Positions 4,958-5,098 of a stretch of 6,032 nt of DNA are shown here, piece after piece. Below the pieces are notes generated by a model, which was given only the letters and a program-made list of their open reading frames with translations, did no database searches and was not told the DNA's origin. The stretch lies in the sequence record OR845271.1, one strand, 5' to 3'. Both the position numbers and the translations under genes were made by a program. Source of the stretch: Escherichia phage ECO95 1-6-1. Position 1 is the first letter of the stretch. Each line of letters starts with the position of its first letter.

Positions 4958-5008
4958 TGATTAGACGTGAGCATTGCTGTAGAAAATTCTGGATTGTGCC
5001 TGTCTTTT

Positions 5009-5090
5009 AACCACGTCAGGCTCGGTGGTTCTCGCGTACCCCTACAGCGAGAAAGCTAGTAAAATATTCTTTACCCCTACAGTAAGAGAG
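5009..5090. promoter_or_regulatory. Structured spacer: one hairpin plus two related hairpin modules, each displaying TACCCCTACAG
   Basis: 5009-5030: AACCAC/GTGGTT stem. 5029-5053: TTCTCGC/GCGAGAA stem, extendable through GTA/TAC around a CCCC loop. 5067-5090: a weaker copy (TTAC/GTAA plus extension) whose 3' arm covers the AAGAGAG SD of the plus-strand gene. The exact 11-mer TACCCCTACAG occurs at 5037-5047 and 5072-5082, 35 bp apart. Confidence 0.5.
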
Positions 5091-5098
5091 TGTTTGAA

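Follow-up and report, generated by a model that had tools for sequence, protein, structure and literature searches.

Antisense control of sieB and a probable cassette of this type before an unrelated gene

The closest known system to the locus considered here is the sieB/sas/esc region of phage P22 (Ranade and Poteete, 1993, J Bacteriol 175:4712; Genes Dev 7:1498). As outlined in two articles that name Ranade and Poteete (1993) as their source, the antisense RNA sas pairs with the mRNA of sieB and makes translation change over from SieB to Esc, an internal product (PMC12197685; PMC7067206), and the length of sas is put at 105 nt in a review's summary. In the curated P22 record BK000583, the sieB promoter is annotated as TGTACCCCTACAGCGAGAAATCGGATAAACT, with the first of two copies of a short motif (motif 1) lying over the -35 region, and the feature "sieB RNA start site" falls on the A of the second ACCCCTACAG (motif 2), so that the sieB mRNA begins ACCCCUACAG. 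A 2026 study lists P22A-sas, a known antisense RNA, as a 127-nt minus-strand RNA-seq species (PMC13397905, Table 2). The same cassette precedes sieB in lambda, where the cargo is SieB and the hairpin around motif 2 (H3 below) has the stem AAACU/AGUUU. It also precedes hkaP in HK620 (annotated as "putative superinfection exclusion protein"), which is of the same subtype as the locus described here, with the -10 hexamer TAAAAT and the leader TTACCCCTACAGTAAGAGAG, but differs from it in the left flank and in having a 7-bp H3 stem without mismatches. Literature searches on hkaP and on the sieB promoter returned no experimental study of the HK620 cassette or of the one analysed here.

The stretch of DNA under study, called the window below, comprises 6,032 nt of Escherichia phage ECO95 1-6-1 (OR845271.1). 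Its spacer at 4993-5098 is likely to be a sieB-type promoter combined with a sas-type antisense cassette, used on both strands and furnished with an HkaP-family cargo. Four observations carry this reading: homology to the P22 region, conservation of the promoter, a preference of the structures for the minus strand, and covariation of the helices. Related cassettes were collected from IMG/VR with pattern searches anchored on the two motifs, on motif 1 only, or on the stem of hairpin H2 only, which gave ~180 loci with ~50 distinct cassettes.

Genomic context in the early-left operon

The window belongs to the early-left (PL) operon of a P22-like Salmonella phage, and the PL direction is the minus strand. 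Its identity to phage S.Kent 1-2-1 is 100%, and it has a mosaic relationship to ES18, SEN22, ST104, and epsilon34. The N-like antitermination gene defines the PL direction and the presumed source of read-through antisense transcription across the locus (Table 1). Between it and the DUF7666 gene lies the cargo open reading frame, oriented against PL, which is the position and orientation of sieB in ST104, SEN22, P22, and lambda and of hkaP in HK620. The cargo protein is 63% identical to HK620 HkaP and showed no similarity when compared with P22 SieB; its family, phrog_1244, is of unknown function, and the protein presumably has an exclusion or defence function.

The minus-strand terminator of the preliminary description was recovered by the terminator scan at slightly shifted coordinates. 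Its sequence also stands directly after the N gene in epsilon34 and ES18, the epsilon34 record annotating the homologue as a "putative weak rho-independent terminator", and it is a separate module that forms no part of the cassette. Adjoining it, a stretch of ~25 nt is similar to an N gene of the ES18 gp54 type at its 3' end; the similarity takes in the gp54 stop codon and gives way to divergence, as judged by eye, after TTGCTGT. This stretch looks like a recombination scar, left where the cassette and its cargo were inserted between an N gene and the terminator. The DUF7666 protein downstream matched no defence model in a defence-model search. It contains tandem 9-residue repeats (NTGNRSAAT/NTGDWSAA), and its homologues differ in length, with 219 aa in the window, 282 aa in ES18 gp53, and 381 aa in SEN22, where the protein is annotated as "c-type lectin precursor" and 11 BLAST places suggest a repeat expansion of the gene.

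Table 1. Features of the window, with class B loci for comparison (coordinates of the latter refer to their own loci).
Feature	Coordinates	Strand	Sequence, evidence, or remark
DUF7666 protein gene	4251-4910	-	resembles ES18 gp53
Intrinsic terminator	4942-4958	-	PL-operon counterpart of tL1, immediately upstream of the DUF7666 gene; terminator scan
Remnant of ES18 gp54-type N gene 3' end	4958-4983	-	like ES18 (L001) 2447-2472
Predicted sas-like antisense RNA (H3, H2, pseudoknot)	4981-5103	-	ends predicted from the P22 RNA-seq species
Candidate H-type pseudoknot, PL-direction RNA	4998-5030	-	interleaved S1 and S2
Pseudoknot S1	5030-5025/5014-5009	-	AACCAC/GUGGUU; third-hairpin helix
Pseudoknot S2	5021-5017/5002-4998	-	GCCUG/CAGGC; interleaves with S1
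Pseudoknot loops		-	L1 CGA, L2 AC, L3 AAAAGA; order S1-5', L1, S2-5', L2, S1-3', L3, S2-3'
Hairpin H2 with motif 1	5029-5053	-	UUCUCGC-U-GUA-GGGG-UAC-GCGAGAA; plus strand is the promoter -35 region
Motif 1	5037-5047		TACCCCTACAG
-10 hexamer, sieB-type promoter	5060-5065	+	TAAAAT; position homologous to the P22 promoter
Hairpin H3 around motif 2, degenerate in the window	5067-5090	-	overlaps the complement of the SD AAGAGAG (5084-5090)
Motif 2, predicted cargo mRNA start A5073 or T5072	5072-5082	+	P22 homology
Cargo gene, 164-aa coiled-coil and zinc-ribbon protein, HkaP family	5099-5593	+	phrog_1244, E = 6.6e-40
N-like antitermination gene	5594-5956	-	Pfam N_peptide, E = 1.2e-18; phrog_271
Class B locus, e14 (L213)	1503-1578
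Class B locus, SfV (L211)	1503-1575
Class B locus (L212)	1501-1575
Class B loci (L214-L332)

Homology to the sieB promoter and the sas template

P22, lambda, ST104, and SEN22 have a conserved counterpart of a block at about 4993-5082 before sieB, and HK620 has one before hkaP. The window cassette is 84.5% identical to P22 over 110 bp by BLAST and 82% identical to lambda over 132 bp, and the homologous DNA of P22 occupies the same place and orientation between N and the next PL gene. Both phages share the -10 hexamer and the two 10-mers. The P22A-sas sequence spans H3, H2, and the pseudoknot; it includes both CUGUAGGGGU motifs together with the region of the third hairpin and aligns to the minus strand of the window. 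In this alignment, the part that runs from motif 2 through the pseudoknot is nearly invariant. The window differs from P22 in its segment between the motifs and its leader, in a weaker H3, and in its cargo, which is a zinc-ribbon protein of the HkaP type and not SieB with an in-frame esc start; no Esc-like internal product is known for it. The cassette is a known kind of element, the sieB promoter with sas, joined to a different cargo.

The preliminary description had reported an exact 11-mer, TACCCCTACAG, occurring twice, and both copies stand where it had put them, 35 bp apart from start to start. With 84% identity, the repeat can be followed over 19 nt, and the 6032-bp window contains no further copy with up to two mismatches. 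With the two-motif pattern, both motifs were found together in more than 120 IMG/VR contigs, and their spacing is nearly fixed, lying between 34 and 36 bp over 35 distinct cassettes. Of 178 loci with an exact motif 1, 119 have an exact motif 2 as well; among loci that keep a cargo, inexact copies of motif 2 mostly show one change (for example ACCCTTACAG, ACCCCTATAG, or an extra C), and such variants beside an exact motif 1 indicate that the copies are not kept identical by conversion. Across 1.8 Mb of loci, 298 copies of the TACCCCTACAG motif lie in cassettes and four elsewhere, with ~3 expected by chance, and 1.2 Mb of related loci have none outside cassettes. The motif is thus unused elsewhere, which argues against a general DNA-binding regulator.

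The plus-strand promoter

When the 35 distinct cassettes are aligned on the A of motif 2, T-12 is conserved in 94%, A-11 in 97%, and T-7 in 94%, and the positions next to these vary freely, which is the signature expected of a -10 hexamer held at a fixed distance from a mapped start. The window has a homologue of the mapped sieB promoter, which this conservation supports, at a place where the preliminary description had found no convincing sigma-70 promoter. That reader and a consensus scan both missed it because there is no recognisable -35: the sequence at that position is TACCCC, with 2/6 matches to the consensus TTGACA. In P22, the sieB promoter was reportedly confirmed through a -10 double mutant. 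The spacing at the predicted start is 1 nt longer in the window than in P22, and by homology the cargo mRNA of the window would begin ACCCCUACAG. Promoters of the sigma-28 and sigma-38 types and a pho box were also considered and were dropped on inspection by eye.

A promoter of this kind could alternatively be controlled by one host regulator that binds the two 10-mers as DNA sites, in which case they would be direct repeats centred near -31 and +6, activation or repression would act on a promoter lacking a -35, and the hairpins would be incidental. The want of a recognisable -35 would suit this explanation, as would the recurrence of the same 10-mer at -35 and +1 at nearly fixed spacing in the 35 cassettes and the joint absence of both motifs from the related class B cassettes described below. 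However, elsewhere in 3 Mb of lambdoid DNA the motif occurs only at chance level, and its flanks covary as stems with a bias to the minus strand, which is unexpected for a DNA site. A phage-encoded regulator is improbable because lambda, P22, and HK620, which are of different immunity types, share the cassette. To our knowledge, no known factor has a TACCCCTACAG-type site, and regulation by a host factor at the two 10-mers is considered unlikely.

Hairpins H2 and H3 favour the minus strand

Folded as a single sequence, the window does no better than its shuffles (z = 0.21), and the case for function therefore rests on comparison between phages. By that measure, the two repeat modules and the adjoining third hairpin of the preliminary description are a conserved structured unit, with stems that are kept and covary in related phages. 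The stem TTCTCGC/GCGAGAA around motif 1 is present in the window (5029-5035/5047-5053). Motif 1 was thought to be displayed in the loop of this hairpin; its GTA/TAC instead lengthen the stem, so that only four nucleotides stay unpaired, CCCC on the plus strand and GGGG on the minus strand. In most relatives, H2 reads UUCUCG-C-UGUA-GGGG-UACA-CGAGAA (TGTA/TACA), and motif 1 makes up most of a 9-11-bp stem under the GGGG tetraloop. Over 28 distinct variants, the mean fold energy of H2 is -9.8 kcal/mol on the minus strand vs. -6.7 on the plus strand; the minus-strand form is stable in 26 of the 28 and more stable than the plus-strand form in 24. In several lineages (L030, L046, L072, L100, and L152), G.U pairs of H2 would become A.C mismatches on the plus strand, where stability falls to between -1.6 and -6.4 kcal/mol.

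The stem of H3 differs by lineage, with CUCUUAC/GUAAGAG in HK620 (in full CUCUUAC-UGUAGGG-GUAAGAG), AAAUCAC/GUGAUUU in L100, and ACUCU/AGAGU and AAACU/AGUUU in others, and its mean energy is -9.6 kcal/mol on the minus strand vs. -5.9 on the plus strand, the minus strand folding better in 45 of 52 variants. The window reverses the trend, at -4.1 kcal/mol (minus) vs. -7.9 (plus), and the second stem-loop of the preliminary description is accordingly weak here and strong in relatives.

The greater stability of the window's own second hairpin on the plus strand is what speaks for the earlier proposal that folding of this module within the cargo mRNA hides the AAGAGAG SD, perhaps with the zinc-ribbon protein bound to it for autoregulation. 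However, the P22 start lies inside the loop, and a start at the homologous A5073 would leave the 5' arm TTCT (5067-5070) out of the mRNA. Of 200 shuffles, 195 are more structured than the leader predicted from 5073 (z = +1.74), which would thus be accessible for pairing, and the minus-strand preference of H3 across variants runs against a plus-strand hairpin as well. Autoregulation found no support, because the same cassette serves the unrelated cargo SieB. Sequestration of the SD in the cargo mRNA is thus very improbable; translational control of the zinc-ribbon gene, which the preliminary description had also put forward, is still probable by way of antisense pairing.

The other half of the earlier proposal, a structured small RNA on the minus strand, agrees with the sequenced sas homologue in P22 and with the minus-strand preference of the structures. 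Its suggested role as a leader of the DUF7666-like gene does not hold, in that the cassette travels with the plus-strand cargo. Read along the minus strand, the order of repeats, hairpins, terminator, and gene could nevertheless bring to mind an RNA acting in cis on the downstream PL genes, either an array like that of a type III toxin-antitoxin system or a put-like antitermination RNA. Outside the motif, however, the two 35-nt units agree at only 18 of 35 positions, the cassette and the module of terminator and DUF7666 gene occur independently, the DUF7666 protein is without a defence-model match, the phage has its own N gene, and Rfam has no match, and a cis-acting RNA is extremely improbable. 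The Rfam search (E up to 10) gave only chance-level hits, to MicC and Atu_C8, with E >= 0.5 and scores far below the gathering scores.

Several familiar element types were compared with the hairpins. A ToxI-like array would consist of near-identical tandem repeats (~34-40 nt), a terminator, and an endoribonuclease toxin gene, all on one strand; only two units are seen here, and they are alike mainly in an 11-19-nt core. As to intrinsic termination, the terminator scan found the site upstream of the DUF7666 gene alone, and H2 is followed by CCACCGAG. Three further candidates were dropped by eye: a YUNR U-turn loop, a CsrA site (which would call for GGA where the loops have GGGG), and nut boxA/boxB, for which the boxA-like TGTCTTTTAACC lies on a strand not known to be transcribed.

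A candidate pseudoknot at the predicted 3' end

The third hairpin of the preliminary description, AACCAC/GTGGTT (5009-5014/5025-5030), is present and is one half of a covarying, interleaved pair of helices, S1 and S2, a candidate H-type pseudoknot; the covariation would fit two alternative hairpins as well. In a MAFFT alignment, the 19 modelled pairs, those of H2 included, are paired in 94% vs. 33-49% when the model is slid, and some of the "not paired" cells are an artefact of columns that misplace the H2 bulge and the 5-bp vs. 6-bp forms of S2. Helices were therefore found sequence by sequence with a shuffle control, and interleaved helices scoring >=25 are present in 91% of 54 distinct domains vs. 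0.9% of dinucleotide shuffles. Complementary variants number 13 for S1 (including CCACG/CGUGG, UCACG/CGUGA, AACCUCA/UGAGGUU, ACCACC/GGUGGU, and CGGG/CCCG) and 10 for S2 (including GCCGGG/CCCGGC, GCCCGG/CCGGGC, GCCUGA/UCAGGC, and CGCCUG/CAGGCG). Counts of G.U vs. A.C pairs, at 7 vs. 4, do not decide the strand of the pseudoknot; it is the loop geometry alone, with a 3-nt L1 and a 6-nt A-rich L3, that makes the minus strand the better fit, and L3 is 72% A across the cassette domains. In P22 sas, the pseudoknot ends at nt 110 of 127, and from this position together with the 105 nt of the review we infer that the 3' end is set or shielded by the pseudoknot, which would stabilise the antisense RNA.

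Covariation also bears on the possibility that the block is a mosaic linker spread by recombination, with an active promoter and an antisense RNA that has no function in the window phage. Homology does break off precisely where the block begins and ends (4993 and 5082), the scar of another N gene adjoins it, some loci retain H2 and the pseudoknot after loss of the cargo, and H3 is degenerate in the window. Against this stand helices that covary with different sequences in each lineage and a P22 RNA that is abundant and has a published function, and a functionless linker is quite unlikely.

Proposed mechanism of dual-strand control

In the preferred reading, that of a sieB/sas-type cassette, the plus strand would provide a weak sigma-70 promoter without a -35, with motif 1 over the -35 region and a start at about A5073 inside motif 2. 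PL would be repressed in a lysogen, and this weak promoter would express the HkaP-family cargo. During lytic growth, after induction or infection, N-modified polymerase from PL would read through N and then through the cargo and the cassette in the antisense direction. The P22 sas RNA is said to derive from PL transcription, and a consensus promoter scan of the minus strand found no promoter-like site; on these grounds, sas of P22 would arise by processing of the PL transcript. The PL-direction RNA of the window may fold in the order H3 (with motif 2), H2 (with motif 1), and pseudoknot and may be trimmed to a stable species of ~105-130 nt like P22 sas. The 5' third of this RNA would be complementary to the part of the cargo mRNA that starts at +1 and takes in the SD and the AUG (5099), by which translation could be blocked or the message destabilised. 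Pairing and convergent transcription would together turn the cargo off during the phage's own lytic growth, and the RNA would be antisense to the zinc-ribbon gene rather than a leader for the DUF7666 gene. The start in the window phage, the production and processing of the RNA, and its effect on an HkaP-type cargo are what we infer in this scheme.

In IS10, the loop of the antisense hairpin in the RNA-OUT/RNA-IN pair meets the extreme 5' end of the target mRNA. The window may offer an analogous arrangement, since mRNA positions +1 to +10 find their complement in the loops of H3 and H2; the two systems have no sequence relation, and the antisense RNA of the window is probably operon read-through with an additional 3' domain. 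As a speculation, pairing could nucleate at both loops, through contact of their G runs with the C run of the mRNA 5' end.

A broader reading would make the cassette a portable self-immunity device, in which a conserved promoter and a pseudoknot-capped antisense scaffold are combined with interchangeable exclusion or abortive-infection cargos that would be on in lysogeny and silenced in lysis. Every cargo mRNA would have the invariant ACCCCUACAG at its 5' end, and each antisense RNA would carry the complement twice, once in H2, a hairpin that is not complementary in cis to the mRNA. The shared ACCCCUACAG handle might then allow a superinfecting phage to disarm the resident cargo in trans, although we regard the broader reading as a whole as unlikely.

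Distribution and variants of the cassette

SieB-family cargos account for 122 loci and HkaP-family cargos for 30, the window among them; a few loci have other cargos. A megablast search with 4200-5650 gave no match in complete E. coli genomes, and the "distant" mode of blastn was needed, which located the cassette in 1261 of 5426 complete E. coli genomes; no feature is annotated under the cassette match in any of the 25 matches listed. A scan of genome contigs also met the cassette in assemblies of unrelated genera (Pseudomonas, Shewanella, Bacillales, and Actinomycetes; L130-L151), on short or ~48.5-kb contigs of low coverage, and these are most likely lambda DNA contamination.

Rearranged cassettes occur among the IMG/VR loci. 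In L156, L171, L173, and L333, the cassette is cut inside motif 2 (…CTCACCCCC-TTATTTTGTCA-GGGGG…) and there is no cargo open reading frame, H2 and the pseudoknot being kept after loss of the plus-strand gene. In L158, L172, L178, and ~12 more, unrelated sequence, ATATTGAATTAATCCAAATAATGGATTAG…, stands in place of the -10, motif 2, and cargo beside a retained H2 and pseudoknot (variant GCCCGG/CCGGGC), so the 3' domain is able to occur with the promoter half missing. L186 has, at ~3810-3900, a second partial cassette consisting of a pseudoknot-like element and an H2 with TACCCCTACAGAGAG, without motif 2.

A second group of loci, class B, comprises E. coli K-12 e14 (ymfH-ymfI), SfV, and Klebsiella phages (Table 1). 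These have the same pseudoknot sequence, GCCTGTCTTTTCACCACTTCAGGCTCGGTGGTAT, upstream of a plus-strand gene that is embedded antisense in the early-left operon, as in the window. They differ in having no TACCCCTACAG motifs, in an extended -10, TGgTATnnT, that overlaps the pseudoknot, and in a hairpin, GCTGG-AGTTCTCACACA-GCCAGC, that abuts the SD. The class B hairpin covaries (GCTGG/CCAGC, CTTGG/CCAAG, and ACTGG/CCAGT) around a conserved loop, AGTTCTCACACA, and the plus-strand cargo genes are very diverse, the one in E. coli K-12 e14 being ymfI.

Significance of the cassette

The control region described here is a rediscovery of one that was characterised in P22 thirty years ago, and its main value lies in the correct annotation of a cassette that is common in E. 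coli genomes yet has no Rfam family. Three points apparently go beyond the literature: one cassette serves two or more cargo families that are unrelated, a covarying pseudoknot appears to form the end of the antisense RNA, and an identical 10-mer is kept at -35 and +1. If the cassette proves to be a general switch that is on in lysogeny and off in lysis, it would be an aid to finding and interpreting prophage defence genes at this hotspot.
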